Source of the DNA: Ascidiella aspersa
Taxonomy: Eukaryota
Assembly: GCA_963924565.1 (NCBI GenBank)
Contig: OZ004615.1
Coordinates: 6,386,001 to 6,450,000 of the forward strand
Direction of reading: 5' to 3'
Length of the DNA: 64,000 bases
The notes under the pieces are model-generated. The model made no database searches. It had not been told where the DNA came from and saw only the letters and a list, made by a program, of their open reading frames with translations. A program made the position numbers and the translations under genes. Each line of letters begins with the position of its first letter. Within the stretch, counting starts at the first letter, position 1. Positions 672 to 20,740 of the stretch are shown here, piece by piece.

Positions 672-779
672 ACAAACGCTGCAACGATAATACTGACCCT
701 TGTTATAACGGTGGAACATGCCTACGGGATGGCCGCTGTACATGCCTGGATGGTTACACCGGAGATCGTTGTGAAACAG
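672..779 (+). CDS. exon: EGF-like domain (KRCNDNTDPCYNGGTCLRDGRCTCLDGYTGDRCET)
   Basis: 6-Cys EGF pattern, cag|...|gtaag, phase 1-1; missed by the ORF track. Confidence 0.9.
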
Positions 780-3700
780 GTAAGATGTGTAACGAATAAG
801 TTTTAGCAAAACGCACAAATTACTATCGGTTTCAACAAACATCGGTTCATCGTTATTAAAAAAAATACGCGTGTATTTATAATGATTAAATACTTGATTT
901 AAACTTCGGTGACTGAGGAATGTAACGACAACACACGTAGACTATTATGTTATTGTTTGTTCAGGGTAGCTTACAACATTGATTGTATTGATTTTAACCA
1001 TTATTTAGTGTTCCTTATACATTTTGATTCCTGATTGTTGCAGAATTATTTTACCTATTTTAGTGTCCGATCATTGCAGCACTCTGCCTTGCTTAAACGG
1101 AGCAGCCTGCATCGGAACGCCGTTGCCTTACAGTTGTGATTGTCGCGACGGATTCTACGGAAATATTTGTGAGAACGGTAATCTGATGTTTAACGCAATC
1201 AATTTTGGTTTAATTTAGAGTTTAAAGGTTTAGATTTTATGTTTGTTAAATTCGTAGGCTTTAACTCATAAACCTCATTTTTTCTTTAATGTCATTTAAG
1301 TTCATTTTTTATGGATTATGGCTGACAATCATCTGTTACGGTAAAATATTTTTGCGAACCACACAAGAATCCAAATTATTTGATTGTCATGCAGAGTACA
1401 CATGTCGCCTGTCAGAAATTCCCGATGATATTGCAATTCGAAATGCGGCAAATATTCGCGTTGAAAATCACCACGTCGCTTCTGTTTATGAAACCTTTAC
1501 GTTTCGGTGTAAAAAACCTTCGCTTCAACTAGTGGGCGCCACAGAGAGCCGCTGTGGCAACTACGGTAGATGGGAAACCGCTCTTCCCACAGGATGCGGT
1601 AAGCGGACTTTAAATGTTTAAAAAATGTGCAGTTTTAAAATCTAAAAAATTCTCTTTCTATTAATTTCCAGCTTTGCCCAGGGCTATATCATATGCCTTT
1701 TTCAAAAAATCGTAGGTATATTTCTCTTGAGTTGCCTGCAAATTTTTATTACATATGCTTCATAGTTACATATCTTGAATATGTAACATGAGACTCCAGT
1801 CTTAGGACCAAATTTAAAACAACCTCAACGTCGACATAAAACACAGTTCGCAATAAGGCCTAAATATAACTCAACTAAATCGTTATAATTTGCTAATCGG
1901 AAAAAGACCTAGTAACGTCGGAAGAAGTCCTAAATGTCCAGAATTAGACCAGTATGCAACCTTTTATCTAATCCCGCTCCTAACTTTATCACTAATTCCG
2001 TAACCTTTAAAAGGGGCAAACCATCCAAAATGGTCGATGACAGACAGGTGGCCCTAAATATTTCCATACCCTAGCCATACAAATTTAGGCATTAGAATCT
2101 TTATTTGGGTCTGATTTATAACATTTTAGGATTTATTTCGACATGTCTAGGTCTTATTTAGATGATTTTTCGTCTTAATCTGCCGTGGTTATTAATGCGA
2201 ATTTAGCCTTATAATATCGTTGATGGATTATTCTAATTTAGACATTGTTGCTTTGTAAGGCTTATTGTGTGCCACACTTGAAAGTACTGTGCAATCAATT
2301 CCTAAAAAAAAGTAAAAAAAAATGTGTTTAAATATTAAAATGTTTTTTCCTTTTACCAGCGACGCATATGACCGCCTTTATTGGCGTACCGTGAAAGCGT
2401 TTTATCAAAATCTGACACATAGTTAAAACACAACTAAGAGTTGCAAACGCGTAAAAATTGCATTTACTTAGTTATACCATAAGCAAAAAAAAAAATTTTG
2501 GAGGGCATGACCTGTCCACTCCCTGGATAAGCCCATGAGCCTTAGTTAAATAAAATGACTTATTGAGGAAAAAGGCAAATAACAAATATACATCAGGTGA
2601 ATTTGTCAAAACATTTATGACGTTTGCTCTATGCGTATAATAATCCCAAAAGAGATGATATATTCTTTAAAAGTAATACTCTATTTTTTTTGCATTGCAC
2701 TTTGTGTGCTGGTAGGACTAGTTTAACCATATTAACAAAGGACTAATAAATATAACCAATATTTAAATACTAAATAAAAACAACGAATCACAAACGTCAA
2801 AATCACAAACAGCTTACAGCTTTCGCAGTATCTCATAGCCTGGGTGACGCTTCTCATCCCCTCACTGTACTTTTACTATTGCAGCCTTGCCTAGCTATCC
2901 GTCCACCAAAAAAAAAAATATTTTAACCTCTGCACCAACAATAATTCGTCATTAGATAGCACAAAAATCGTTCCAGATAACAACAAAATATATGATACGT
3001 ATAAAATCGCAAACGCAGTTTACAGATGCCCAGGACTGGACGAACCAGCAAACGGCCGACTCGAGAGTAGCAGCGGTGGTCCGGTTTCTTTGGATCTCCA
3101 CAGTCGAGTGCGAGTGGTTTGCAATCAAGGATATCGGGCTATCAGAGGAGAATTACATTGCACCACTTCGGGTTGGAACCACCAACCACGTTGTCAAGGT
3201 TCGAGTTTTTTTACTTCATAGCGTGTGCTTCAAGTTTTTACGACTGTTGATTTAAGTTAAAACTGCATTTTCGTTTGAAACTTTATTTCAATTAATGTAA
3301 TTGAACAGAGTTGTTAAGCAGTTATTGTACGTTTAAGGAAAAAGGGAATTTACATATGGTTTTAATCCAGTAGGGCTGCGAATGCGCCCATATCATTTGC
3401 CGTGTTAAAAGTGCCCTAAAAGTTGCATGTTTTTTTTTTCGAATGATACTACATAACTTAATGCAGACGTGATAGGAACGCATTTATGAAACTGCTGTTC
3501 TGAATTACATTTAGCATTTTTTATCGAAATCAGGGTTTTATTAAGTTAACTTAATGATATCCTAACCTTGGTGCCTTAAACTAAACTAAGTCATTTTTTT
3601 AATCTTTTGGTTAAAATAAATTAACTGGATTTAATTATTTAAGTATTGTTTTGTCATTTCAAAATTACAACATCAATACACAAAATAACAACATCAATAA

Positions 3701-6700
3701 AAAAATAATTTCGTAAACATACACAGTAATATTTTTGCAGAAATTGCTTTCGGAAATCACAATAACTGATTTTATATACCGGTAGTACACAAAAAGTCTG
3801 TTTCTAATAAGGCGCCAACAACCTTGGCTTACTTTACAGAAAAGCGATGTCGCCCTCCTCCTTTACCGGACAACGGCGGAGTAACTGAACCACGTGATGC
3901 GTATTTCTACAAGTCTGAGGTCACCTTCTTCTGCGACCAAGGCTACCAAAACATGGGCGATCACACTTCGATTTGTGACCAATCTTTGCGTTGGACAGGA
4001 GTGGCAAATTGCGTTGGTAATGTTCGAATGCCTTTAATTGAAAACTTTTATGAAACCAACTTTATGAATGTTATAACAAAGTTACGTCATAACCTGACGT
4101 CACACGTTAAGCCACAAAGCTACGTCAAAACGTGACGTCACAAAGCTGCGTCAAAACTTGACGGTGTGCCAATAAAAACTTATTTCCGTAAAATATATAG
4201 GCTGCTCATTGATAATAGCGACAAGCCATGGAACTGCGAAAAGTTTTGGTGGCCTAACACTAATAAGGATGTTACGGGACACGTGAAAGTGCTGATCACC
4301 TTAGGGAAGTGGTTCCCACCAAACTTATGCTCAGAAGAGCTTGTCAAGCAACAAACTGAAAAAGAAAAACCAGACAATAGAACTAAGAATTAGGCAGTAA
4401 AAACGGCAACCAACAGAATTGTCCTAGCTAACAATTTAAAAAACCTAGATTTTGCAGAATATATCTAGAATTCATATTTATTATTTTATCTTAAAAGTAT
4501 TTCTCGCTTGTCATCTTCCTAATGTAAACTTTGAAGTATGTACATCATTTATTCGACATCATTGGCTTCATATATACATTAATTAGATTTGTATACAAGA
4601 CATCAAGACATACCTAATGTTTTTATTCACAGTATCCTCTAACCAAGGAGCTTAAAACGATTTGATATACTTTTTTTTAACTAAACGTTTTCAGGCGTAT
4701 TGCGAAACTAGGTTGACTAGAAAAAACATTTTCAACGCAGCTTGAAGAGCAGTGCATTTAGCTTGGAAATACGACAGATTTGACCAAATCTAATCACGTC
4801 AAAGGCGCTGTACATTTCTCCTAAACTATAATATAAATGCTAGCATTTTTTAACAATATGCCATTATTTTTATGGGTATAATACTCATTTTGTTTGAATT
4901 GAAAGATTTGCCAATTTAAACCAAACAAACACAAAGTTTTTCGCGCTTCCCGCGACTATTTTGGATTTTAGTTGCATTTTTGCGCACAATTTCGCAAGAG
5001 AATGTCAGGTGTTCTTTAGGATAATCGTTTTAAGACGTCCTTATGATGTCATATCTGAAAACGTTTTTTAACTGGTGGCCGTAAGAGAAACAAAAACTAT
5101 TAAAATGTTGGAATCGGACAGTCATAGTCATCGTCGATTTCTCTAATAGTCGCCTTCATGAACTTTATTTTTTAAATTTCGTATAGCCTCTACAACGTTG
5201 GCAGCTTTTACTACATCGAGGCCACCTACAACTACGGTGCGTTCGGTCGTCCATCGAACCCAGCCACGCCTCCAGCTGACCACGCCCTTTTTTCATCCCC
5301 CGCTGACCACGCATTCAGCCCCCACCGCTCCGCCTTCAGCCCCTGCCGCTCCGCCTTCAGCCCCCGCCGATGAAGGGCCCAGGTGGAGGAATTGGGGCGC
5401 CTGGGGCCCTTGGGAGGCCTGCTCGGTCACTTGCGGGTCGGGCCAGCAGCGCCGCCGACGCCCCTGCCCCGGCTCCCAACACAACGTTCTACAATGCAAG
5501 GGAACCAACTATAAGCAGAGAGACTGTCCCCTGTATCCCTGTAAGTGGTATATCTAACAAAGTTGCTTCAGTTAGTTGCACATATAAGCTTAGAAGTTGC
5601 CACGACTTAACAACTCAAGTAAATTGCTTTACTCAAGTTCACTTGAGACAATATTGTCAAATTACTTGACTAAACTAATTGGGCAACATGAGTAGACTTT
5701 AATAAAGTTCTTTAGACTTGAACTTCAGTAGTTTATTCAAAACAAAACTCATTTAGTCTTAAATATTTTCATTAAGTGCAATTAAAACTAAATTATTCTC
5801 GCTTTTAGTTTGTTTTGTATGGTTAGCTATCAAAGTATGATCAGATTTGATCAACAAGTTATCAAAATTGAATTTATGTTCGATTTAAACAACTTAATAA
5901 CTAAACTTGCCTTGCTATTCTAATGACTTGGATGGATTTATTTGAGCTTTGTCCAGACAACATTACTTTTTCACAACATTGCTGTATTTAAAGGCCTAAA
6001 TAAAAATGTAGATTGGTGTGTAAAACCAGTGTAAATGAGGCAAAGCAGTTCTAATATACCTTCTTTAACATTATTATGCTTTGCAACAATTTTTTCTAGC
6101 CGGTAAATTGTTTTGCAGCAATTTTTTTTTTTGTTTAATATTGTACATGTGGAGCAGTGGTTCTCAACCTTTTATGGCTTGCGGCACCCCTGCAAGATTT
6201 TTCTGTAGGTAGTTCACTAGAATGTCGCAATAAACGGAACTGGAACAACCTACAACAACTCTACAAAACGTAGGAAGTTAAAATTGGGTTTATTCCACTC
6301 TAATCGTACACAAAAAAGTTGTAACAGTTGAGCAAAAATCAAAATCTTAAAAATCTTATATTTCGCGCCACCCTTGAGCGTGCACCCCGGATGAGAACCA
6401 CTCATGTAGAGTATAATGGATTATGCAATAAAATTATTTTTTGAATTATCCTACAATATTGGATGTCTATAGTCATCTTAAGGTTGTAAAAGTGAAGTCC
6501 AGCTTTGTGCCAAAACAATTAACTCAAGAAGGGAGTAAATAGGTCGCTGCGTCAAATAGGCCTTCTGACAAAGTACAAAACGAAATTTCTTATGAAATCA
6601 GCATTGATTTACTCAATTTATTTTGATTAGACAACCTTATGATCAACTAGAACAGTGCTTTTCAGCCTTTAAAAGAACCGTTCGTACTTTTTCTATTTCG

Positions 6701-9700
6701 GAAAAGTTTCGTCCGCACGAAACTAGCACAGTAAGTTTGCAACATTTGTTTTTTCCTACTTATGAAATCACAATGAAGGAGTTTGTGTCTGAGACACTAT
6801 ATGACTGTCCTGTAACACAAGTGGGCGCACCACATTATTTGCTTACTATAATACACATAATAAAATCATAATATGCACCACTTTCATCCACACATTCATC
6901 CGCACGACGTTTGTCATCCGCATTATTTTTTTTATCCGCACAAGTGCGTACCATACCACGGGTTGAAAAGCATTGAACTAGAAGATTACTAGTTTTACAT
7001 TAAAACCAATCAGTCAGCTTTTACACCAATGCTTTATAGGCAGTGTCAGCTTGCGCGGTATAATATGTACATAAAATCTTGCGGAACACCTCCATCATTA
7101 CATAACAATCCAATCCAATTTAACATTAAGTTTATTACCTATTCAATAAAAAAAGTATTATTTTGCGTGCTAGCTTTGCATGATACCAACGACAGCCAAC
7201 TTAACCCTCAGGAAATTTGTGTGGTTTTAAGAAACGGTATATTATATTTTAAGCAAAATATCGGCCCAAGTTTGCCGATGTGTATATATGGTTAGAACAG
7301 GAATAAACTAACAGTCTGCCTCTAGGATATATCTGAGCATGCTTTTTCTGCAAGCATATTTGTAATGCATCACAGGCAAACATTTAAAAAAAAGCTGATT
7401 TACATTCAATGTTTGCATGTTTAAAGGTGGACGCGAGTTCGACTTCCGAAACAAGCGGTATATTGCCAGTTCGGATTTAAGGAATTTCGCAAACGCCGAG
7501 GATGCCTGCCGCCACCTCGGAGGTCGTCTTGCAGTCCTCAAGGAGAAGGAGGTGCACGTGGGGATAGCACAACTTCTTACTTACGGTTGGCTTAATTCAA
7601 TTTTAACTTGACTGATAGAATTGTTCGGTCCTTTGTATTTTATATTACATGTCGATGTTCGACATTTCTGCTAAAGCTTTTTCCCCGCCCTTCGATTACA
7701 AGTGACGTTATAATATACATACGGACCAATTTACTCAAAACTGCTTTAAGCGTTAACAAGCCAAAAACCTTTGATTGTTAATTTATTATTTTCAAGGTAA
7801 GGTGCGAAACGGTACATTGGATCACGAAACACAGCTAGGTACACATAAGAACTTTACAATAGGTTCCTCTGGCATATAGTTTTTCAACCAACGTTTCGGC
7901 TTATTATCCGGCAAGCCTTCGTCAGGGACCAACACACAAAGCCAACAGGGTTCTTTGTGTGATTTTACTTTGCGCCCTGTTGGCTTGTGTGTTAGTCCCT
8001 GACGAAGGCTTGCCGGATAGTAAGCCGAAACGTGGTTGAAAAAATATATGCCAGAGGAACCTATTTTAAATATACTATGTCTGGTAGCAACAGCATATAT
8101 ATAAGAACTTTACATTCGATTGGAACAGATGCCACCTCTGATAAGTATTTCCACTTAGCAATGCCATTTCTACTTGGCATCGCGTATAGGGTCACTACCA
8201 GGGCGGACCCAAGAGGGTTGAGGCACGTGGCCATTGCCTCCCAAAACTGTATTTTTCGTGCAAAAATATTTCTAGTTTGAATCTAATTATGTTTCTAGAA
8301 TGTCTCAGTTCAATTGAATAAAATCGCTTTATGAGCGAATCTATAACATCGTTGCAGCTTAGGGTAACACCTGTCGAATCTGAAAGTATACCAAGTGAAA
8401 CGAACTGTGTGTGTTTATAAGGTTACTTTTTATGACGTCGCGTTTAGGTACAACTTCATAATTTTAACGTAACTAACTTCGTCTCTGAAATAAAATGCTC
8501 GTGCCCCCCCAAACCCAATTCCTAGACCCGCGCCTGACCTATTTATATGCAACGTATTTACAGTAGTTGCTTGCTTTACATGCTACTGTGTCTGTGTTGT
8601 CAGCCAGCCCATCATGGATTGGCCTCAGGAAGACTAACTTCTGGAAATGGTCCGACGGTGACAAGGTGATAAACATCGACAACAGAGATGTATTTAATCC
8701 TTGGACTACCGAAGGTCAAACAAATCGCCGCCTGCAATGTGCATACTTAAATGCTGATGCGAAATGCCATCGTTGGGGTTGGGATTGGCATCGCGGTTGG
8801 CGTCACACTAAATGCTGGCAGAAGGCTGACTGCAATGCCGAACATTTCTACGTTTGCGAGAAAGGTAAGTCGTATTTTTTTTTACTTTTTAAAACTATTA
8901 CCGAGAAAGGGCAATTGAATTTACCGGGTTCCCATAAAATCCCCGTCGATGGCAGAGATTTGTGATGTTTTTATCATAGGTAATTACTAAGTTAGTTATT
9001 ATATGAAACTATGGCATGTTTAAAGTTGCCTAAACAATATAAAAAACTTTTCATTACAAACACTTTTCTAAACAGGGTATTTGCGAATAACATGCCCGTC
9101 CAGTAAAATCTGACTATAGACTTCGAGCTGACAGCAAAATTTCATACTCATTGTACTGAATTTCCATTTAGTTTCGCATTTGGTTTGCTGAATTGGGCTG
9201 TGGTTTAATCTAAACTCTAAAGCATATAACACTGAACTCGAAAAAATTGTTCCAAATACCTTCCCAGCTTATACGGAGTAAAATTTCGTCGTTTTGTACT
9301 GCATTACAGTGCATTAACAGCTTAAGCCACGGGTTGTGTCAGGTGATAGATTCGCTCTTATAGTTGACGGCCCAACAACGTATATGTATCTGTCATGGCG
9401 TTTTTGTACAAAGCCATTTTGCAGTTAAAGAGAAGAGGTACGTCAAAAGGTTGCAGGGTGTCCGCAATTGCATACAAAATTAACAATTTTTTTAATACAG
9501 TGGCAAAGTTCGTGAATATAACGTTTTATGTTTAAATATTATGTTTTGAAAATGTTCGATTTATCTCGATTTTCCAGAATGCATTTAACATTTAGGTATT
9601 GATAAATATACAGGTAGTTTCGTGAAGTTGTTGGTTATATAGACTTAGGGGTCCGTAAACTGGACAGTAAATGGAAAGTGGTCCGTGACTAAAACAAGTC

Positions 9701-12700
9701 GGAAACCACTGCTTTAAAATGTTACTTTTCACAGTCACCGATGAATGCTTCCCAGGCTTGTGCAAGAACGGAGCAACCTGTCACGAAGGTGTCTGCTCTT
9801 GTACACCTGGATACGTTGGGGATCGATGTGATGTCGGTGAGAATACAGAGCATAGCGCTCATACCTTTACATTTGCACGTCTTTTAGTAACTTTGGTGTT
9901 TAAAGTTGTTGTTTAGAGCAGTGCTTCTTACACCTTTTTTAGTTTTGTTCACCCCTAGCATCTATCTCCAGATTCCATCCACCCTTGTCTCATGATATGA
10001 TAAACTATCTAGTTTATATATAACAGCACAAATTGACTTAGGTTGTTTCGATTTTTGTTAAGATCAACTCAAGCTAAGTTTTACCATTGTAAATCTACAA
10101 TTTCTCGAGTCGGGAGATATAAAGCTACAAAGCACAAAACACAGTCACAACGTTTAGAAAAACAATCGACTATAAAAAAAAACCCAGTCGACTATCAATA
10201 AAACAATCGACTATTAGAAAAACAATCGACTATCAACGTTTAGAAAATCAACCGACATACACTTCTGACGGTTCACCCTTATTCTCCATTTCCGTTTGGT
10301 TCACCCCTGCAAAAATTTTATTCACCTTGGGGTGAACCATTCACCTGATTAAGAAACACTGGTTTAGAGCAGTGCTCCGCAACCTTTTTCGATATGCGGC
10401 ACACCAACAGAAGTAAAATATTTCGGCGGCACACCAACGAATTATATGTCGATGGACAATAGACAACAATAGCAAATATTCTAGACAGCCAAAAGAAAAA
10501 GAAGCGATTCATGGTAAAAGCGCCAAAAAAAGGCGCCAAAAATTTTACGTATTGCAATCTTATATCTTCTTATTTTGCAGACTTTCAAAAATTTCTATAC
10601 TCGGTCGAATTTCTGCAAATTGTACCTCATTGAAATGGCTGATTAAAAAACAGGGGGCTTTTAAAAGCATTCAAAAAATGAAACCTGACATTGGCGCTTT
10701 GTACTTTTGGCGCGTGTTTTTTTGCCTAATTTATTTTTCGAAACAGCTGCCAAGACCAATTATACAATCACAAAGTAATATATATTTACATTGATATTTT
10801 ATAGGTTTTATTTCTCCTTTCCACCTAAATGTAAAGATTGAAATCAGTTGAGTCAGCTAAACAAAATATTTTTCAATTTAATTTCCGGCGATAGAAGGTA
10901 ACCCAGGTTTTACCAAGTTTTGAATATTATTGAAAGTTTATAAAAATGACACTTGGATAATTGCGTAGTCAAAATACCTACCTTGGTAAGATTTTGGCCT
11001 ACATTTTTCGCGTTAATTAAATTGCTTATTAAATTTCCCCCTTCAAAACGTAAACACCTCCGGGAACGTCGCGGCACACCGGTTGCGGGGCACTGGTTTA
11101 GAGTAATTGCTAACCAACAAGCTAACCTGTCTAAAGTAAAGTGGTCAACTTGCCCAACGAAACCCATACGAGGATTAGACCCATGTTTTCTTAAGGTGTT
11201 TGTTTTTATAAATAGAAAACACTGGAAAACGGCCGATTGACTGTCCCCAAACACTATGAAGCATTAATTTGAATATACTTTTCGATTTGATTCGTGGCTT
11301 TATGACGAATGTTTCTGTTTCCAGTGTCGGATCACTGCAGCACTTTGCCTTGCCTGAACGGCGCTACCTGCGTCCTTGAAAATCTGCAGTACCGTTGCAC
11401 TTGTCGCAATGGTTTCCACGGCACGAAATGTGAGCAAGGTAAATAGTGACCATTTTCAATGTTTGACGACCCGTTGTAAGTAGTATTTGTCAGCCTAGGA
11501 AACTTTCTCACAAAATGCCGACGGAAAATGTTTTTGTTTTATTCATATGCATTTTTTCTTCTAATGTAAATCAAATTATGTTTCTACGTCGTCTTAGCTC
11601 ATTTGAATTAATCGCTTTAGCCCAAAGGCGTAGAACGGGCGTTTTGCGCTATGCGCGAATCTATAACATTGTTGTAGCTTTCGGGAAAACTGTCGAATCT
11701 AAAACTACAACAAGAGAAACGAACTGTCTGTTGTTAATAAGGTTACTTTGCATGACGTCACGTTTAGATATAACTTTATGACGTCACAATTTGACGTAAC
11801 TTTCTAACAAAATCTCTGAAAATAAATTGTCATGCTCCCCAAACCAAATTCCATAAATGCTACGAAACGGTATTTTTCAGCCTGTAATGAATATAAAAAC
11901 TTGTTTTATAGGCATTGCATACTCTGACCCGTTATTCCTTCTTTCAATAGCACTTTTCAAAATCTCCTAATTATAACCAAAAGTGAACATGACGGTAACG
12001 TTAAAGTACATTTTGCAGAGTACACGTGCTCGTTGGAGGGCTTACCGCCTGGTATTGATAAATTGGATCAACGTGGAAACAGTATTTTAGCTTCTCAAGT
12101 CTCAGTAGGCAACGTAGTGCGATTTAGATGCACCGACCACAAACTTACATTAAATGGTTCAGCGGAAGTCAGTTGTGACACATTCGGAATCTGGGAGGAT
12201 GAATTGCCTGTTGGTTGTGGTAAGAAAACAATTTAAGTGGGGTGAAACAATGCCACTCGACTGATCAATTGATTATTTTAATTAATTAACAGAGCATTAA
12301 TAATCGCGATTATTATTTTAGATCTGTTATGTCCGGATTTGGCTGACCCCGAGAACGGTAAAATTATGCCATCCGGGCAACCAGGGGCTGCTAGTTTGAA
12401 CATTCGACAGAGGGCAAAGGTAGTTTGCAATCGTAGATACATTCCTGCAGAAGAAGAGTTGATCTGTACAAAATCAGGATGGTCAAGTCAACCTCTCTGC
12501 GAAGGTATTCCTAAATTCTTCTTATAAAACAGTGATAACGGTTATATACGTTTTTGTTGTTTCTTCATCAAAATATATCCCAAAATCCGACGAGTTCAGG
12601 AGTTGTAATAATTTGATTTTTAGTTTTAATACAAATGTTCACTTAATCTAAACTAGACTTACTATGACAACAACTTAAACTAAATCTTGTATTGCTATTT

Positions 12701-15700
12701 TTCACAAATTGATTTGGAGTTTAGTTGTTTTACGAATGACTTGACTAAGGCTTAAACAAAGCTAATGTTGGTGAACTTTTACGAATGTTTTTTAATTAGT
12801 TAGACCTATGTTATTTATACAATGTTGCAAATATAAGAAAAGTGTACACTTGATCACGAAACGCTGCTTTATGCTTTTAAAATAACACTCAAGGTATATG
12901 CCCAATATCAATGTCGTACAAATTTGTCTTGCAGGACAGTGTCACGTGTTCATCTCCAATTTAGAAGAAGGCGTGAGGTTGAGCGGAACAGATCAACAAA
13001 GCGACCGTGTTGTACGGTTTAAAGTAGGATCCCAGGCAACCTTCGAGGTATAGGTCATGCTTATTACCAATTTATTACCATTATAAAAATGTTTCTAAAT
13101 TGGCAAAAATGTTTTAAAGCAGTGCTTTAAACAAAAATCAAGGTTGTCAGTTACCTAACACACCCATTAAAAAATTAACAATGCGCTGTTTATATACACT
13201 AACATTTTTCAATTCTGAACTCTGTGTGAATTGCTTGTTTGTCACCTACAAAGACTACAAAGATATTTTTGCTAACAACAGTTTTTAAACGACTTTAAAT
13301 TTTCGGTCAATGACACTCATTTGCCAGACCAAAATAGGGTTACATTTGTACAAATTGGGGTAAATGGCTATTTTTAAATATGATTCCAGTGTGCCAACAG
13401 TGCCCAGGTTCTGAACGGCAACCCCGCAGTACTCACATGTGACAGCGACGGCCTGTGGGATTTCGATTACACCGATTTCCAATGCTCCTCGCCCTGTCCG
13501 GCTCTCAGTAACCCTAACAACGGAGCCTTAGTATGGACTTCCGGGTCTCCGGGTACCTGGGAGTTTGGGACTGTATTGAAGGTTAACTGTGACCGTGGTT
13601 ACCAACCAAGTTCCGACATCACGGTCGAGTGCACAGCAGAAGGATGGACAAGGGAACTGCCGTCATGCACGAGTGGGCATTTTTATTTAGTTTGTTTTCG
13701 CATCTAAAAATCTAGATATGAAAACAGTGTTACTTAACCGAGGGCGCCAACCACTTCGTATGGGCGCGAGATCTAACCATTTATACAGTGATTTTAATTG
13801 TCTCATTTATCATATTGAAGTTGAGTCGTCTTTTATGCTGTCCCAGCTTTACACGAAACATACACATGCTTAGTTGCCTAACTGAAAAATTTGATTGAGG
13901 CGATTTGTCATTATCTGAGCTACTATAGTTTTGCCAGTTTATTTTGGTGTTTGAGTTCATTTAATTTAAATTTGCAACCTTTTAGAACCAATGAACCAAT
14001 AGACGAGTTAGCTAGTCTTAATGATTGGGCCTTTTACTTTGATAAAAATGCTGAATTCACTTGGAATTAGCCTCATGTGACAATGACCTAAAATAGAACT
14101 TGAATTGCTATTTTTCACAAATTACTTCAATATAAATTCAGCTTTTTACTAATGACTTGACCGTGGCCTTACAACACAAATGTCGGTGATCTTACAAGAT
14201 TGTTTCTAAATTAGTTAGACCTTTTTTTAAAAAATATACAATGTTTCAATGTATACGATTCCATACTATTAAATTGGAACTTTAACACGTAACGAAACGC
14301 TGTTCTCTAGTTTTAAATTAACAAAAAAAAAAAACAATACCAAGGTTTGGTAAATTTGTCTTGCAGGGCAGTGTCACGTGTTCATATCCCACTTAAAAGA
14401 AGGCGTGAGGTTGAGCGAAACAGATCAACAAAGCGACCGTATTGTATGGTTTAAAGTAGGAACACAGGCAACCTTCGAGGTATAGGTCAAGCTTGTTACC
14501 AATTTATTACCAGTAAAAATATTGTTAAATTGGCAAAAATGTTTTAAAGAATTAGCTTACTTTAAAAATCAAGTTTGTCAGTTACCAAACACATCCATTA
14601 TCACATTAAACATGCGCTGTTTATATCCACTAACATTTTTCAATCCTGAATTAATGTGTGAATTGCCTGTTTGTCACCTCAAAAGACTTTTGGTAACAAC
14701 AGTTTTTAAAAGACTATAATTATCGGTCAATGACCTTCATTGGCCAGACCAAAATAGGGTTGCGTTTGTGCAAAATGCAGTAAATGGCAAATTTGTGCAA
14801 TATGATTCCAGTGTGCCAACAGTAACCATGTTCTGAACGGCAACCCGGCAGTATTCACATGTGACAGCGACGGCCTGTGGGATTTCGATTACAACGATTT
14901 CCAATGCTCTTCGCCCTGTCCGCCTCTCAGTAACCCTAGCAACGGAGCCCTAGTATGGACTTCCGGGTCTCCGGGTACCTGGAAGTTTGGGACTGTGTTA
15001 AATGTCAACTGTGACCCTGGTTACCAACCAAGTTCTGAGTTAACGGTCAAGTGCACAACAGGAGGATGGACAAGGGAACTGCCGTCATGCATGAGTGGGC
15101 ATTTTTTTAATTTGTTTGTTTGTGCCATCTTAAAATCTAGGTTTTAAAACCTGGTTCTTTACCGAGGGGCGCCAACCAATGTCCAGGGACGGCTAGCTTT
15201 AATGCAATAATGAACCATTTATACAGAGATTTAAATTGTCCCATTTTGTCATGTCGGCTTTAGGTCGTATTTTATGCTGTCCCGTGCTTTGCACAAAATC
15301 TAAACATGTGTATTTACGTAACTCAAAATTTTGCCATTATCTCAAGCTGCTATTTGGGTTTATATTTAGTTTGGTTTCTTTTTTCTACAATGTGGGCTTT
15401 GTTTTGTCAGAAAAAATCTACGTTATTGTGCACCAGGGTCTTGCCTCCCTTCAAACTCCAGGAACTAGGGCGATATGATACCGTTTGATGAAACATATCC
15501 TATGAGTTCTGCGTCAAAGGCTTGAGAGTTTAGACGCTTTACAAGAAAATATAGTACACTTAATATTGATCATAGGTAAATCTATTTCAAAAGAACAAAA
15601 TTGTTTATGGAAGAATGGTTATTATCGCGTAGAGGTGTGTAAAGCGAGCGATAGAACACGAGTGACATGATGTCCTAAAGTTATCAAATGTCTCTAAAGG

Positions 15701-18700
15701 TATGTGTCAAAAAAATAGATTTTTTTAAAAATCCGCCTCTTCAGCCAATTGATTCAGGCCTTCATAAGAAGAACACAATTTCAGTGGAGAAACAAAAAAG
15801 CAACTTACAATTCTTTTATGCAGAAATGTGCTCACTGGAAGGATTGTCAGATGAAATAAACATTGTGGATCAACACGGGAACGTTCTTTCATCAAAACAG
15901 TTTGCCCCAATGAATGAAGTGGTGTGGTTTCAATGCGTTGATACGGCAGAGTCATTGGTTGGTAAAAAGAAGAACCGATGTGGCAAACGCGGCATTTGGA
16001 AAAACAACCTTCCAACCGGTTGCGGCAAGTCTAACACTTAAATCTATTTAAAATATTGTAAACCAGTCATTTTTTAATACCTTAAGTTCAAGTCAAGTCT
16101 TTTAAAATAATGACAAGTCAAGTCCCAGTCCAAGTCATCAGTTGCCCAAGTCGAAGTCAAGTCTTTATTAGGGCACGTCATCTCCAAGTCAAATCACTGA
16201 TATAATATAGTAAAACTATGAACCATTAAAATTCGTAAATGTTTCGATTAAATGAGCAATAAGCAATAATTCAACTATAGGGAATAACAAAAAAACAACA
16301 TCTATCTGTATCATCTAATGATTTGACTCAATGACTTAAGTCCAAATCAAGTCATTTGTCTAAAATACTCAAGCCAATTCAATTTAGTTTACCAAACCGA
16401 CTTAAGTTAAGTCAAGTCTTTTAAAAACAGTGCCTTAAGTGCACCTAAGTAAAGTCATCGATTTACTTCATTACAACACTGCTATTTAACACCGCTGAAT
16501 CGTCACCACCATTACAGAAAAATCAAACTTCGGATTGTATGATTTATAGCGCAAATTGAGCACGAGGGGTATTCAAGTTCCTCCGCCACATTCTAATTTT
16601 ATCCCAATCAATCATTACTCCCTGCTGTATGTTTATTTATGTGCCTGGGCAGCTAAAAATGCTTTGCAAGATTTACACTGCTACTCGCCTAAGCCTTTTA
16701 TTAGATGCAACGAGCGCCGGGCTGTGATTTCTTTCGTCTATTTTAAATCCTCATCCTCTAACACCGTGCTTTATAAACCAAGGGTCGCATTCCTACAGGT
16801 TTCAGTGGCCGCGTGTGAAATTAAACAAATGTTACACTAACTACCTTTAATCCTTCATCTTTCCTACAAAGAAAACTTATGCAAAGCGTATAATCGCTGA
16901 CCGAGTTGCAAATGTGTGCAGAAGTAGGTGACACGCAATTTTATGGTTAACACCAAGCTATCACACATGAAGTGTCGAGTAAAGTTATGCTAGGGTCGCT
17001 GACCAAAATGTTTGGGCGGCTTAACTCGAGCATGTTCGGTGCGTACACTGCACATTAGGGGAACATCCTCTCTCATTTTATAGATCTCTTATGTCAAAAG
17101 CTGCCCGACCCGGCGAACGGTAAAATACTGCCCTCCATGCAACTTGGCGCTGCTAATTTGAGCATACAGCAAAGAGCCAAAGTAGCTTGTGATCCCGGTT
17201 ATTTTCCTGTGGAAGAAGAGTTAACGTGCACAAGAAACGGATGGTCGAGTCTACCTAACTGCAAAGGTATACCAATCAAAATTCAAAATTGCGTGTAAAT
17301 TTAAAAGTTTGCAGACTCCTCTAAACACCGAAGACTTAGTAATTACAAAATAACCACGATTTTAATCTTACTTTTTTTCTTTTTGTTTTTTGTTATAATC
17401 TCTACCCAAACAAAAGCGTAAATTCCTGGCTGTCAGAACAAGCGGCATTACATTTCCGTTTGTTTATTCATCCATACAAAGGGATATTCACATATTTTAC
17501 ATTGCAAATAATGTCAAATAGCGGGATTTGACAGACTAGGTAATGGCTGCGAATAAATATTCGCTGTGGTCGCCATTAAGGCCCTTTTGATAAAAGGAAT
17601 AAATTCTTGTCGATAACGGACATTTCTTAAGAAAATAAAGTCCAGTAAATAAATATATTCAGTACACACACGCCTCAGTTAGTTGTCTAAGCCCATAAAA
17701 TCAGCATGATTTTCGCCGAACGGGCTCGGTTATCGGGTCAAGGTTTTTCAGTTACCCTTTAAGGCGAAGTTTCGATCGTTTACATCAAGGGCCACGAAAT
17801 TTGTAAACAGCAAGCCCAAAGTTTAAGTGTTTATTGCAGCACGTTGCTCGGTCGTCGTCAAAGATATCCGTCAAGGCGTGAGATTTCTGAGAAACGATTC
17901 TACAGAAGAGTCTGTTCTGTATTTTGAACCAGCAACTCGGGCAACTTTCGAGGTATCGTTTGTATTTACAACAAACCGTTAGAATGTCAAAATATCCTAA
18001 TCCATTATTTAAAAAATAACTAATTTGTTCATTTTTCTTGGTTAGAACCATTAACCATTTTAATATTTTGCCACAGCACGCTGATCTTCAATCTCTTGTA
18101 ATTTAGGTTGTGTTTAATTTAATAGCTTTGGGGTAACTGTAAAATCAGTGTCTTCAAAGTAAAAAACAGTTACTCTGTTATAGTTTTGCAAGTGATCGAG
18201 ATATAACCTTGTGTAAAGAGAATAACGCTAAACATTGATATTACAAACCAAAAATTAAGTCTTTTCAAGTTTAGGTTTCGCATAAAGTGCGAAAACGAAC
18301 TTTCGTTAATCTTTTTTAGGTTAACAACAACTGACGCATTTAGCACGTATTATTTTAATGGCATTTACCTGCAGTAGATGATTTTGACGAAACGTTGGGA
18401 GGGCCACTAACGTAGAGCAACATGGCCGTACATAAATCAATATCAATGAACAATACGAATATTTTTAGGGTTGGAAAACAATGAAAGCCTTAAGTCGAAT
18501 TTAACACGACTCGTAGCCGATGGTGATAAATCCTTGCTTTTAGGCATTTTAAGTTTGAAAAAATTATATAATTTGGGAGGGGCGTGTCTCACCATGAATC
18601 CGTCCTTGGGCACAAAGGTATTATTATTTGTTAAGCGATCCTGCTAAAATAATCCTTTACTCACTCCAGTCAACTTTCCTTTTAACACAAGCGACTCTGG

Positions 18701-20740
18701 AGATTGTATAGTGAACGGTGGTTTATTCATTTGTTTTAATTTTTTAGTGTGTCGACAACGCCCAGGACCTGTTTGGTCCCCCACCTGTGCTCACTTGCGG
18801 CGCAAACGGCTTGTGGGATTTCAATTACGCCCTGTTTTTCTGTCACTCGCCCTGCGACCCGCATTTTACTCCAAACAACGGGACCCTTGAATGGATAGAT
18901 GCTGGACAGCAAGGAAGCTGGATGTGGGGCACGGTGTTGGGTGTCAACTGTCATTGGGATTTCGAACCAAGTTCTAACGGCACAGTCACATGCACAGACA
19001 AAGGATGGAACGGAGCACTTCCTTCATGCATAGGTCAGTAATTTTTTCTAGTGAGTTTATCGACATTCTGTAGTTGTCGGTTTTTCTATGCTATACACCT
19101 TATCAGTGTTGCAATGACTAAGTCTTAGATTACTTAAGTGCACTGTTTTAAAAAGACTTGACTTGACTTAAGTATTTTGGGCAAAATTAATTGACTTGAC
19201 TTAAGTATTTTAGACAAATGACTTCGTTGAAATAAAAGCAATTTGCTTGCCCTCTATTGCCTTTTTGATATTTTTTAATAATCGGACGAGTTTACTTAAT
19301 TTTAATAGCCTTTAACGTGTAATTTTTATCACAAACACTTTACTAGGACTTGACATGTTATTTATTCGAAAAGACTTTACTTGGACTTAAGTTATTTTAC
19401 ATATGACTTGACTTTGACTTTTTTACAGTCTTCCTAATCGTCGCCAACGAGGCCCTTATACTAAATCTCCTCATGGTAACTTTAGAATTATGGAACTATT
19501 GAAGAGTGTGCTAAAGTGGATATTTCTGTTTGAACTGAAAATAACAAAAAATTCTTCGAACATTCTATCCAAGTAACTAAAATAGGGTTGATATACCGTA
19601 ATATACTCTTATAGGTGTCATAACTTATCCACACACAATACGTGGGTTGAATGCTGTTTCACCTCTATGATTTACAGTGTGTGGCCTTATCAATTCCGAA
19701 CTTAATTCTGTTAAAGGGCACTTTATAGTTTGTAGTCGGGGCTCGAGTAATCTTATAGTAGTAAAATCGAATTCCGAATCAGACTCCATTCAAATGAACC
19801 GACTGCGTCGAATCTTGAGTTACGAGTCCGGAGCCGACTCCGCAACCATGGTCATTTCAAAACGAATGTTTTATGCACCAAGGAAAACGTGCTTTCGTTT
19901 TTGCAAATAAAAACTCGTGGGCGAACCTGCAAAAAAACAAAACCTATTTGAAGACGTTCGTTTTAACAATCGGACAAAATTAGTTGATTTTTGCCTTCTG
20001 TGTTGTGCCATGATACACATGGAAATAGAAGAAAGGATATCGCAGGAATCATTAAAGTATTACCGTTCTTCGTTTTGGAAGAGGTCTGCCCAGTCACATA
20101 TACGACACTATTGTTACAGCTAAACAGGGGTGGCGAGCGACGCTGCTTTCCCGTGTTCTGCTTTAAACTATTTAAAGATTGCAAGGTCCCTTGATTGATT
20201 GTAGTAATAATGACTTAAGTCAATGAGTTGAATTGGCTTTGTTGAAAGTCACTCGCCCTTTATTTATGCGAAATGACAGGACTTGACTTAAACATTTCGG
20301 GCACTTAAATACTGGATCTAGGTTTAGGTCATTAAGGCAAATAACTTTACTTGAACTTAGGTGTTGTCACAAAATATTTTTGGTGACCCTGTTAAAAAAA
20401 CTCTTATTTTTTTCTGAAATATGTAACTTCTATATGTTGCGCTTTTGTTGCTTGCCTGCTAAAATATTGCTCTGCTTTGGATGAATTAACTATTTTTTTA
20501 CATTTTAAATTTTTATTTTAAATTTAATGTCTTGACTTGGACTTGCTATAAAAAATTAATAATAACTTAAACTGGAGCTTGGCTTGTTTTTTAGCGAATA
20601 GTCTGATTTCGACATGCGCTGTGTGCGCGATTATCGTAGTGGTTTAGTTTAAGATTGTGTTTAAATTGATCAACTTAAAGTTTATTTTGCGAACTTTTGC
20701 AGTGAAAGAAAGGCCACCGGAGCAAGTCACCCCTCCATAA
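672..20740 (+). CDS. Multi-exon gene (5' end upstream of the window): selectin-like mosaic extracellular protein, EGF2-CCP3-PT linker-TSP1-CTLD-EGF2-CCP10; C-terminal exon(s) uncertain
   Basis: join(672-779,1064-1177,1395-1598,3019-3198,3840-4016,5187-5540,7427-7585,8604-8864,9735-9836,11325-11438,12019-12219,12322-12504,12935-13047,13390-13672,14367-14479,14812-15094,15824-16024,17084-17266,17840-17952,18748-19033, probable last exon 20703-20740). All junctions are AG/GT (one GC donor) and phase-compatible, with no internal stop. Cys/Trp spacing matches EGF, sushi, TSP1 and CTLD consensus. Confidence 0.88.
1064..1177 (+). CDS. exon: EGF-like domain (SDHCSTLPCLNGAAC...GFYGNICEN)
   Basis: EGF consensus, tag|...|gtaat, 114 nt. 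Confidence 0.9.
1395..1598 (+). CDS. exon: divergent CCP/sushi domain, type a
   Basis: C...F.C...G.....C...G.W....P.GC; paralog of 12019-12219 and 15824-16024. Confidence 0.85.
3019..3198 (+). CDS. exon: CCP/sushi domain, type b (YRCPGLDEPANG...VCNQGY...HCTTSGWNHQPRCQ)
   Basis: Sushi consensus in a frame different from the ORF-track call; 180 nt, phase 1-1. Confidence 0.85.
3840..4016 (+). CDS. exon: canonical CCP/sushi domain
   Basis: CRPPPLPDNG...VTFFCDQGY...SICDQSLRWTGVANC. Confidence 0.9.
4215..4310 (+). mobile_element. possible Ty3/Gypsy integrase zinc-binding-region remnant
   Basis: KFWWPNTNKDVTGHVK resembles the (F/Y)WWPxMxxDVxxYV motif; short, no other pol motifs seen. Confidence 0.3.
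5187..5540 (+). CDS. exon: Thr/Pro-rich linker plus thrombospondin type-1 repeat
   Basis: [28 protein letters not shown]. The last Cys codon is split T|GT across the intron to 7427, which confirms the join. Confidence 0.9.
5314..5369 (+). repeat. coding 21-bp tandem repeat (about 2.7 copies) encoding SAPTAPP/SAPAAPP
   Basis: ttcagccccyrccgctccgcc units. Confidence 0.85.
6155..6403. mobile_element. hAT-type MITE
   Basis: TIR cagtggttctca...tgagaaccactc; 8-bp TSD atgtggag/atgtagag. Confidence 0.8.
6653..6975. mobile_element. hAT-type MITE (second family copy at about 39636-40021)
   Basis: TIR cagtgcttttca...tgaaaagcattg; perfect 8-bp TSD aactagaa; internal catccgcac repeats. Confidence 0.85.
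7427..7585 (+). CDS. exon: C-type lectin domain, N-terminal half
   Basis: NFANAEDACRHLGGRLAVL helix-1 motif. Confidence 0.88.
7859..8100. mobile_element. Penelope-like retroelement remnant: inverted arms, each with a hammerhead ribozyme core; 14-bp TSD
   Basis: Arms about 7858-7950 and 7975-8065 are reverse complements. CTGACGA-stem II-GAAAC at 7999-8031 (+) and 7925-7892 (-). Direct repeat ataagaactttaca at 7845-7858 and 8101-8114. Confidence 0.7.
7999..8040 (+). ncRNA. minimal type-I hammerhead ribozyme motif (possibly degenerate)
   Basis: CUGACGA A GGCUUGC CGGAUA GUAAGCC GAAA CGU; stem II pairs 7/7 including one GU. Confidence 0.55.
8604..8864 (+). CDS. exon: C-type lectin domain, C-terminal half, with Cys-bounded W/H/R insert
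   Basis: WIGL...WKWSDG...C...W...C....YVCEK. Confidence 0.9.
9735..9836 (+). CDS. exon: EGF-like domain
   Basis: DECFPGLCKNGATCHEGVCSCTPGYVGDRCD. Confidence 0.9.
9919..10361. mobile_element. hAT-type MITE with internal aaaacaatcgacta repeats
   Basis: TIR cagtgcttctta...taagaaacactg; TSD gtttagag on both sides. Confidence 0.85.
10370..11095. mobile_element. second, different hAT-type MITE abutting the first
   Basis: TIR cagtgctccgcaacc...ggttgcggggcactg; TSD gtttagag on both sides. Confidence 0.85.
11325..11438 (+). CDS. exon: EGF-like domain, paralog of 1064-1177
   Basis: SDHCSTLPCLNGATCVLENLQYRCTCRNGFHGTKCEQ, same 114-nt length. Confidence 0.9.
12019..12219 (+). CDS. exon: CCP domain, type a
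   Basis: YTCSLEG...FRC...GSAEVSCDTFGIWEDELPVGC. Confidence 0.85.
12322..12504 (+). CDS. exon: CCP domain, type b
   Basis: CPDLADPENG...VCNRRY...ICTKSGWSSQPLCE. Confidence 0.88.
12935..13047 (+). CDS. exon: first half of CCP type c
   Basis: QCHVFISNLEEGV...GSQATFE, phase 1-0; three paralogous copies. Confidence 0.8.
13390..13672 (+). CDS. exon: second half of CCP type c plus CCP type d
   Basis: CANS...TCDSDGLWDF...C SSP CPALSNPNNG...NCDRGY...ECTAEGWTRELPSC, phase 0-1. Confidence 0.85.
14367..14479 (+). CDS. exon: recent duplicate of 12935-13047
   Basis: Near-identical sequence and splice sites. Confidence 0.8.
14812..15094 (+). CDS. exon: recent duplicate of 13390-13672
   Basis: Near-identical, open frame, 283 nt. 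Confidence 0.85.
15824..16024 (+). CDS. exon: CCP type a with GC donor
   Basis: MCSLEG...WFQC...RCGKRGIWKNNLPTGC G|gcaagt. Confidence 0.8.
17084..17266 (+). CDS. exon: CCP type b
   Basis: LCQKLPDPANG...ACDPGY...TCTRNGWSSLPNCK; 183 nt, as 12322-12504. Confidence 0.88.
17840..17952 (+). CDS. exon: first half of CCP type c (third copy)
   Basis: RCSVVVKDIRQGV...ATFE|gt, 113 nt. Confidence 0.8.
18748..19033 (+). CDS. exon: CCP type c second half plus CCP type d (third copy)
   Basis: CVDN...TCGANGLWDF...CHSPCDPHFTPNNG...NCHWDF...TCTDKGWNGALPSC. Confidence 0.85.
20703..20740 (+). CDS. probable terminal exon (VKERPPEQVTPP*) followed by a 3'UTR with AATAAA at about 21275
   Basis: Strong acceptor ttttgcag, phase-1 compatible; alternatives exist (see findings). 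Confidence 0.45.

Follow-up and report, generated by a model that had tools for sequence, protein, structure and literature searches.

A C-type lectin domain (CTLD) with a derived Trp-rich loop is encoded at positions 8604-8864 of the window, the whole stretch of 64,000 nucleotides analyzed here (G000:C9:6386001-6450000, in an intron-rich genome of 308.6 Mb), and it recurs in sister loci whose exons continue into the CCP, vWA and trypsin order of complement factor B. The Trp loop and this lectin-bearing, factor-B-like layout are real as features, and we hold the anatomy and the family assignment with high confidence; their function we infer. Here an old fold has plainly acquired a new surface, the loop, and this putative binding surface is probably functional. 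We tentatively propose, from sequence and by analogy, a candidate role for the insert-bearing CTLD as a Ca2+-independent docking module of factor-B-like zymogens that would act in the manner of factor C.

Anatomy of the lectin exon and of the window gene

The lectin exon is flanked by AG and GT, and its reading frame, starting at 8606, yields 86 residues that form the C-terminal half of a CTLD. The SWIGL sequence, a form of the WIGL motif of the CTLD fold, is present, and the canonical Cys residues (one in the first CTLD exon; Cys45, Cys76, and Cys84 in the second) are invariant across 32 aligned half-domains. Pfam Lectin_C matches this half-domain exon at E=0.006 with 17.8 bits, against a curated cut-off of 22.6, and it matches all nine exons of the family (9/9), the best at E=3e-08. 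The initial annotation placed the exon and its motifs correctly, but it viewed the domain in isolation and overlooked the first CTLD exon and the gene context (Table 1). The exon sits in a repeated module composed of a Pro/Thr-rich linker, TSP1, CTLD, two EGF and several CCP domains, and the signal-peptide exon of the gene lies upstream of the window. The mapped exons of the window gene are open, in phase 1 and bounded by canonical splice sites, with no stop or frameshift. Two minor features accompany the module. The TSP1 domain ahead of the insert-bearing CTLD opens with Arg-Trp-Arg (5381-5389), the tripeptide type responsible for LPS binding in factor C; a match of this length may arise by chance, and Trp is normal in TSP1. 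An intronic inverted repeat with similar arms (7822-8109) lies upstream of the insert exon and is common to all four copies of the insert.

Table 1. Features of the window gene (positions in the window).
Feature	Position	Strand	Remark
EGF exons (672-779, 1064-1177) and CCP exons (1395-1598, 3019-3198, 3840-4016) of the preceding module	672..4016	+	
Pro/Thr-rich linker and TSP1 exon; final Cys codon completed across the splice to 7427	5187..5540	+	boundaries from sequence
CTLD exon 1 (N-terminal half, first canonical Cys)	7427..7585	+	alone without Pfam match
CTLD exon 2 (WIGL motif, beta2-beta5; canonical Cys at exon residues 45, 76, 84)	8604..8864	+	phase 1-1
Cys54-Cys70 Trp-rich segment in the beta3-beta4 region; net 16-residue insertion	8765..8815	+	predicted disulfide
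Second half of the insert (Asp60-Cys70), like the D-x-H-R-G-x-W-R-x-x-x-C turn-beta4-Cys of insert-free paralogs	8783..8815	+	profile match
WQK in the WND (Ca2+-site) column	8816..8824	+	alignment
EGF exon	9735..9836	+	
EGF exon, spliced to 12019 (7 RNA reads)	11325..11438	+	
About ten CCP (sushi) domains in seven mapped exons, three via second halves only	12019..19033	+	
Possible 3' end: reading on past the last CCP exon meets a stop two codons into the intron; AATAAA near 19231	19034..19240	+	use presumed

In CTLDs, the EPN or QPD motif and the WND motif together form Ca2+ site 2. As initially annotated, and as seen in the aligned half-domains, EPN/QPD is missing from the window domain and WQK takes the place of WND. 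The EPN/QPD motif is missing from 4/4 insert copies and from 5/5 insert-free paralogs, and the WND column on beta4 reads WQK in the former against WRK in the latter, so that the motifs of a Ca2+-dependent C-type lectin are lacking in both. Given these missing motifs and established CTLD chemistry, the canonical Ca2+ site 2 cannot form in the insert-bearing CTLD. Since all five insert-free sisters lack the motifs as well, their loss likely predates the insert, which undoes the coupling originally drawn between motif loss and insert, in which the lectin fold had been repurposed to display the loop. The absence of these motifs is, moreover, ordinary and common among CTLDs: an EPN/QPD-type motif (loose pattern) occurs together with WND in only 6 of 23 other CTLD half-exons of the genome, and carbohydrate binding is absent from most CTLDs (PMC6275457).

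Size, rarity, and origin of the insert

The segment between the additional Cys residues translates to CHRWGWDWHRGWRHTKC, 17 residues that comprise four Trp, three His, three Arg, two Cys, and one Lys, with Trp at the alternate positions 57, 59, and 61 and again at 65. The spacing between the Cys designated C3 and the beta4 Trp amounts to 25 residues in the insert exon, vs 9 in the five closest paralogs and 8-14 in 23 other CTLD half-exons of the same genome, the latter being the complete second halves matched by pattern in the 30 best Pfam loci and in fetched stretches, with one 31-residue non-CTLD match left out. A spacing of 25 vs 9 therefore gives a net insertion of 16 residues; the position, the composition and the two Cys of the "extra 17-aa segment" first described stand, but its length as an insertion does not. 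The composition of the insert is above chance level: a six-frame scan of 664 kb gave 4414 Cys-x(10-20)-Cys windows, of which only five contain at least four Trp, and four of those five are copies of the insert. No AG dinucleotide occurs within the insert, so any GT/GC..AG excision would remove the conserved beta4 Trp too; the possibility, contemplated from the start, that the insert is spliced out is hence rejected. The domain holds six Cys, of which four are canonical, and the pairing of Cys54 with Cys70 is therefore the simplest one and a likely, predicted, extra disulfide.

Several observations bear on the origin of the insert. When a profile of the corresponding segment in the five paralogs was slid over residues 46-70, the top match fell on Asp60-Cys70 and was equaled by 4 of 3000 shuffles (a post hoc test), and the pairwise alignment sets D-W-H-R-G of the insert against D-L-H-R-G of the paralogs. 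Adjacent WxxxxC units are identical at 11 of 18 bases, and periodicity at 6 and 12 bases is borderline (P=0.05 and P=0.04, vs synonymous randomization). This pattern suggests that the insert arose by internal duplication of the domain's own turn-beta4-Cys; on the simplest reading, the ancestral turn would persist at the loop tip, Cys70 would be a duplicate of Cys76, and more sequence, including Cys54, would have been added on the other side. An origin of the insert by microsatellite slippage alone is rejected, given the borderline periodicity.

Insert-bearing and insert-free domains in the genome

Four insert-bearing exons, 97-100% identical, occur in the genome, together with five insert-free sister exons of 33-43% identity. 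A tree built from 32 half-domains places these groups as sisters (90/84, not starred), and the insert lineage has kept its frame along a long branch of 1.3 changes per column. The derived loop with two additional Cys is thus upheld, its Trp-rich insert being retained in frame in 4/4 copies. The copies differ by five amino-acid-changing codons and one silent codon, and three of the five replacements (Arg56Asp, Asp60Glu, and His62Arg) fall inside the insert. Its four Trp and two Cys are fixed in all four copies, which tells little about selection because the copies are 97-100% identical.

The insert could also be devoid of new function, a side effect that was tolerated when a surface loop underwent internal duplication and slippage. 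The match between its second half and the domain's own turn-beta4-Cys, the similarity of the WxxxxC units with their borderline periodicity, and the concentration of replacements within the insert (3/5) would all fit such an account, and longer beta3-beta4 loops are known elsewhere, as in CTLD7 of PLA2R. We nonetheless judge it decidedly unlikely. A second Cys that keeps the count even and four exposed Trp would hardly last unused in a secreted protein, the lineage has stayed in frame despite its long branch, and exactly one insert copy is present in every long gene of the family.

The initial annotation went further and envisaged a conserved cationic finger. The net charge of the insert, however, spans +1 to +4 (+3, +4, +1, and +1 in the four copies, B1 being the copy at +4), with Asp in place of Arg56 in two of the four copies and Arg in place of His62 in one. 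A cationic-aromatic finger that is membrane-active or binds metal, in the way of a beta-hairpin antimicrobial peptide, could still be argued from the charge of the B1 insert and from a composition that recalls the disulfide-closed, LPS-binding hairpins of ALF, arenicin and tachyplesin (PMC10672452). Against this, conserved strong positive charge is not found, none of the four inserts has factor C's basic-aromatic-basic tripeptide, the loop forms part of a large protein with many domains, and AlphaFold2 gave no hairpin, in a low-confidence model with pLDDT below 50 over most of the insert. The membrane-lytic finger is the weakest reading, because charge varies between near-identical copies, and we consider it highly improbable.

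The AlphaFold2 model of the half-domain has a mean pLDDT of 56.4, with residues 55-66 below 50 and without strands, and that of a 47-residue fragment a mean of 44.5. With the low-confidence half-domain model, Foldseek returned nothing at E<=0.001; a fold search with the same model (pLDDT 56) gave a best Z of 3.4 (rmsd 3.0, 60 aligned), and 23 of its 26 rows were CTLDs, but the model had itself been built on a CTLD alignment. Ortholog searches yielded 0 usable candidates of 2 with the exon against longer proteins, 0 of 372 with the family alignment, and 0 of 9 with the protease exon, for which no animal homolog was retrieved; among metagenome contigs, 0 of 151 pattern matches were usable. The sole match among 1.84 billion proteins (P0001) was rejected as spurious, being a Cys-poor repeat protein with PKD-like matches, and the ESM Atlas gave a weak Lectin_C lead (score 0.91, recognition below threshold). 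Because the protein collections appear poor in animal proteins, these blank searches do not show that orthologs are absent.

Elsewhere in the genome, a QPD-type CTLD (L039:1501-1719, in G000:C2 at ~5.92 Mb) has a smaller beta3-beta4 extension rich in Trp, Arg, and Lys, with a 14-residue spacing and no extra Cys. A very large tandem expansion of CTLD exons (G000:C2:5.6-7.6 Mb) holds most of the 150 scored Pfam Lectin_C matches.

Sister loci with a factor B/C2-like layout

Three sister loci, B1, B2, and B3, lie at 5.65-5.81 Mb of the same contig (C9), 0.6-0.7 Mb from the window. Each presents, in order and on a single strand, signal/WAP-like, CCP, EGF, TSP1, and CTLD modules followed by CCP, vWA, and trypsin exons; the first exon, for which Pfam gave nothing, is provisionally labeled WAP-like. 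Exactly one insert-bearing CTLD is found in each of them, always as the last CTLD and upstream of the CCP, vWA, and trypsin exons, and it is accompanied by one, none or three insert-free CTLDs (0, 1, 1, and 3 across the four long genes). These insert-free domains of the same gene provide natural controls, and the effect of the insert is therefore directly testable. A fourth locus, the short gene (G000:C9:6347819-6360956, minus strand), consists of a WAP-like exon, three CCP domains, vWA and a protease with intact triad motifs, contains no CTLD, and faces the window gene head-to-head, with ~2 kb separating it from that gene's signal exon.

The CCP-vWA-serine protease order of factor B/C2 is present, by exon order, in B1, B2, B3, and the short gene. 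Pfam Sushi, VWA, and Trypsin match the tail exons of the sister genes, and a genome-wide search found only four such vWA exons and four close protease exons. Among solved structures, the CCP adjoining vWA matched various CCP proteins, including human C2 and factor B, whose third CCP it matches over its full length; for the vWA and protease exons, which are short queries, the best matches were collagen VI and thrombin/trypsin, respectively, and not factor B. From exon order, the CTLD appears to be joined to the vWA and protease in one transcript per sister gene. The catalytic motifs TAAH, DFDVAL, and GDSGG are present in B1, B3, and the short gene. The B2 protease exon (G000:C9:5730634-5730957) reads GDAGG for GDSGG, with DxSxS kept in its vWA, and B2 is accordingly predicted to be a catalytically dead factor-B-like paralog. 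The MIDAS DxSxS segment is DCSRS in B2, DCSPS in the short gene, and DCSRN in B1 and B3. In B3, one CCP exon contains an in-frame stop and the CCP before vWA has lost its last Cys (G000:C9:5773728-5773900, 5797968-5798198); this locus may be decaying, or it may skip the affected CCP exons. To judge from the GDAGG of B2 and the CCP-exon stop of B3, some of the family is dead or in decay. The B cluster is directly preceded on its upstream side, at 5.49-5.60 Mb of C9, by runs of multi-CTLD, mannose-receptor-like exons that are apparently duplicated.

Status and expression of the window copy

The window gene's own copy departs from the factor B/C2 layout: no vWA or protease exon was found on the plus strand across the 45 kb from its last CCP to the end of the window, and no transmembrane exon was recognized by eye at 19-30 kb. 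The window copy would thus appear to be either a duplicate in decay or a secreted, non-catalytic version that might serve as a competitor or adaptor. Its region 11637-17541 is 95% identical to B1, introns included, and pN/pS is 0.77 against B1 (49 nonsynonymous and 18 synonymous differences in 15 exons), 0.39 against B2 and 0.51 against B3, which suggests weak constraint.

These values, together with the 45 kb that lack vWA and protease exons and are occupied by annexin genes, could also mean that the window copy is a truncated pseudogene and that only the sister genes with vWA and protease matter, a view that is compatible with any reading of the loop. Its mapped exons nevertheless lack stops and frameshifts, its signal exon and splice sites are intact, and its last CCP exon is followed by a stop and AATAAA; overall, we deem a pseudogene somewhat unlikely. 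RNA was sampled from ~6% of run X4. In this sample, seven reads span the EGF-CCP junction (11325-11438 to 12019) at the predicted splice sites; three copies contain this junction, in every case downstream of an insert-bearing CTLD, and the seven reads may stem from the window copy or from B1. Within the same ~6% of the run, no read covers the CTLD exons, a dip that is no evidence either way, depth is low at the 3' exons, and no read joins the CTLD to the vWA or protease exons. Most RNA reads are drawn by interspersed repeats at ~6150-6330 and 9930-10350.

Proposed role of the insert-bearing CTLD and comparison with known systems

In the docking model, the Trp-rich loop at the beta3-beta4 tip would offer an aromatic surface whose four Trp could stack, without Ca2+, on a repetitive foreign surface such as a microbial polysaccharide or glycolipid. 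The docked zymogen would then keep its protease beside a surface-bound C3-like substrate, and the protease-less window copy could compete with it or act as an adaptor. By analogy, a non-protein foreign surface is a possible target of the loop, put forward here with somewhat less than even confidence. The loop may instead bind a protein: a C3-like substrate, a protease partner, or some other domain within its own chain. This alternative, which we regard as rather unlikely, is in line with the lack of carbohydrate binding in most CTLDs (PMC6275457) and with the ascidian CiCD94-1, whose CTLD does not bind carbohydrate and probably recognizes peptides (PMC5465252). It would also account for an insert-bearing CTLD that is always single and closest to the catalytic half, in genes where the number of insert-free CTLDs varies, and for an insert charge that is not conserved. 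On the other hand, the alternation of Trp57, Trp59, and Trp61, together with Trp65, would suit stacking on a flat polymer, and two EGF and one to about ten CCP domains may lie between the CTLD and the vWA.

The postulated docking has partial counterparts among CTLD proteins. The E-selectin loop that carries Arg97 and Tyr94 presumably belongs to the beta3-beta4 region. This loop is charged, lies after the third Cys and before the WND Trp, and touches the ligand (PMC12736226). As in Dectin-1, which binds beta-glucan without Ca2+ through the proposed binding residues Trp221 and His223 (PMC9630629), there is no Ca2+ site 2 and Trp and His are the proposed binding residues; unlike those of Dectin-1, which reside in the core fold, the residues of the insert-bearing CTLD are on an added, Cys-bounded loop and their binding is putative. 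The oyster CgCLec-CCP, which activates C3 (PMC8605247), likewise combines a C-type lectin with CCP in an invertebrate setting, but it recruits a separate MASP-like protease, whereas the protease of the sister genes is likely in the same chain.

Selectins possess a Ca2+-dependent N-terminal CTLD and a membrane anchor. The CTLD followed by EGF and CCP repeats resembles their layout; unlike in selectins, the CTLD of the window and sister genes is internal and lacks the motifs, so that no N-terminal Ca2+-dependent CTLD is present. Selectin identity is rejected, the CTLD being internal and the sister genes ending in a protease.

To our knowledge, vertebrate factor B has no recognition domain of its own. 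The Ciona Bf genes are triplicated, Halocynthia Bf is also known, and factor B/C2 follows a CCP-vWA-trypsin layout (PMC4714745). The family described here resembles factor B/C2, ascidian Bf included, in the C-terminal CCP-vWA-trypsin of four sister loci, in tandem triplication and in its extra N-terminal modules. It differs from the tabulated invertebrate factor B, for which a 2016 list gives LDL-A and EGF-CA as the only extra domains (PMC4714745, its Table 1), in that the sister loci carry WAP-like, TSP1, CTLD, EGF, and many more CCP domains. If spliced as one chain, a lectin- or TSP1-bearing factor B would be new with respect to that list. A search of the open-access literature listed no lectin- or TSP1-bearing tunicate factor B and no such CTLD insert.

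Factor C provides a working analogy for a factor-B-like family that would couple recognition and proteolysis, without implying membership. It combines a lectin-like domain, CCPs, and EGF with a protease and acts as a C3 convertase on bacteria (PMC10672452, PMC4714745), and its LPS site is Arg36-Trp37-Arg38 in a Cys-rich region (PMC10672452). The horseshoe-crab protein has Cys-rich and LCCL domains and no vWA (PMC10672452), whereas B1-B3 have one. If the CTLD is spliced into the vWA/protease chain, the result would be a factor B with its own recognition domain, which, if true, bears on target choice in the early alternative pathway. In its fullest form, the proposal would have self-targeting factor B zymogens, that is, a chordate alternative-pathway protease with its own pattern-recognition module, in which a dead lectin site was replaced by a disulfide-closed Trp loop derived from a duplicated hairpin, and in which the window copy and the dead B2 serve as decoys or adaptors that tune the site of C3 cleavage; as a whole, we think this quite unlikely.

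Lastly, the window contains tandem annexin genes at 29700-61000, with Pfam Annexin matched in 6/6 open reading frames tested, and at least two of these genes have long N-terminal exons rich in Gly, Tyr, and Pro.
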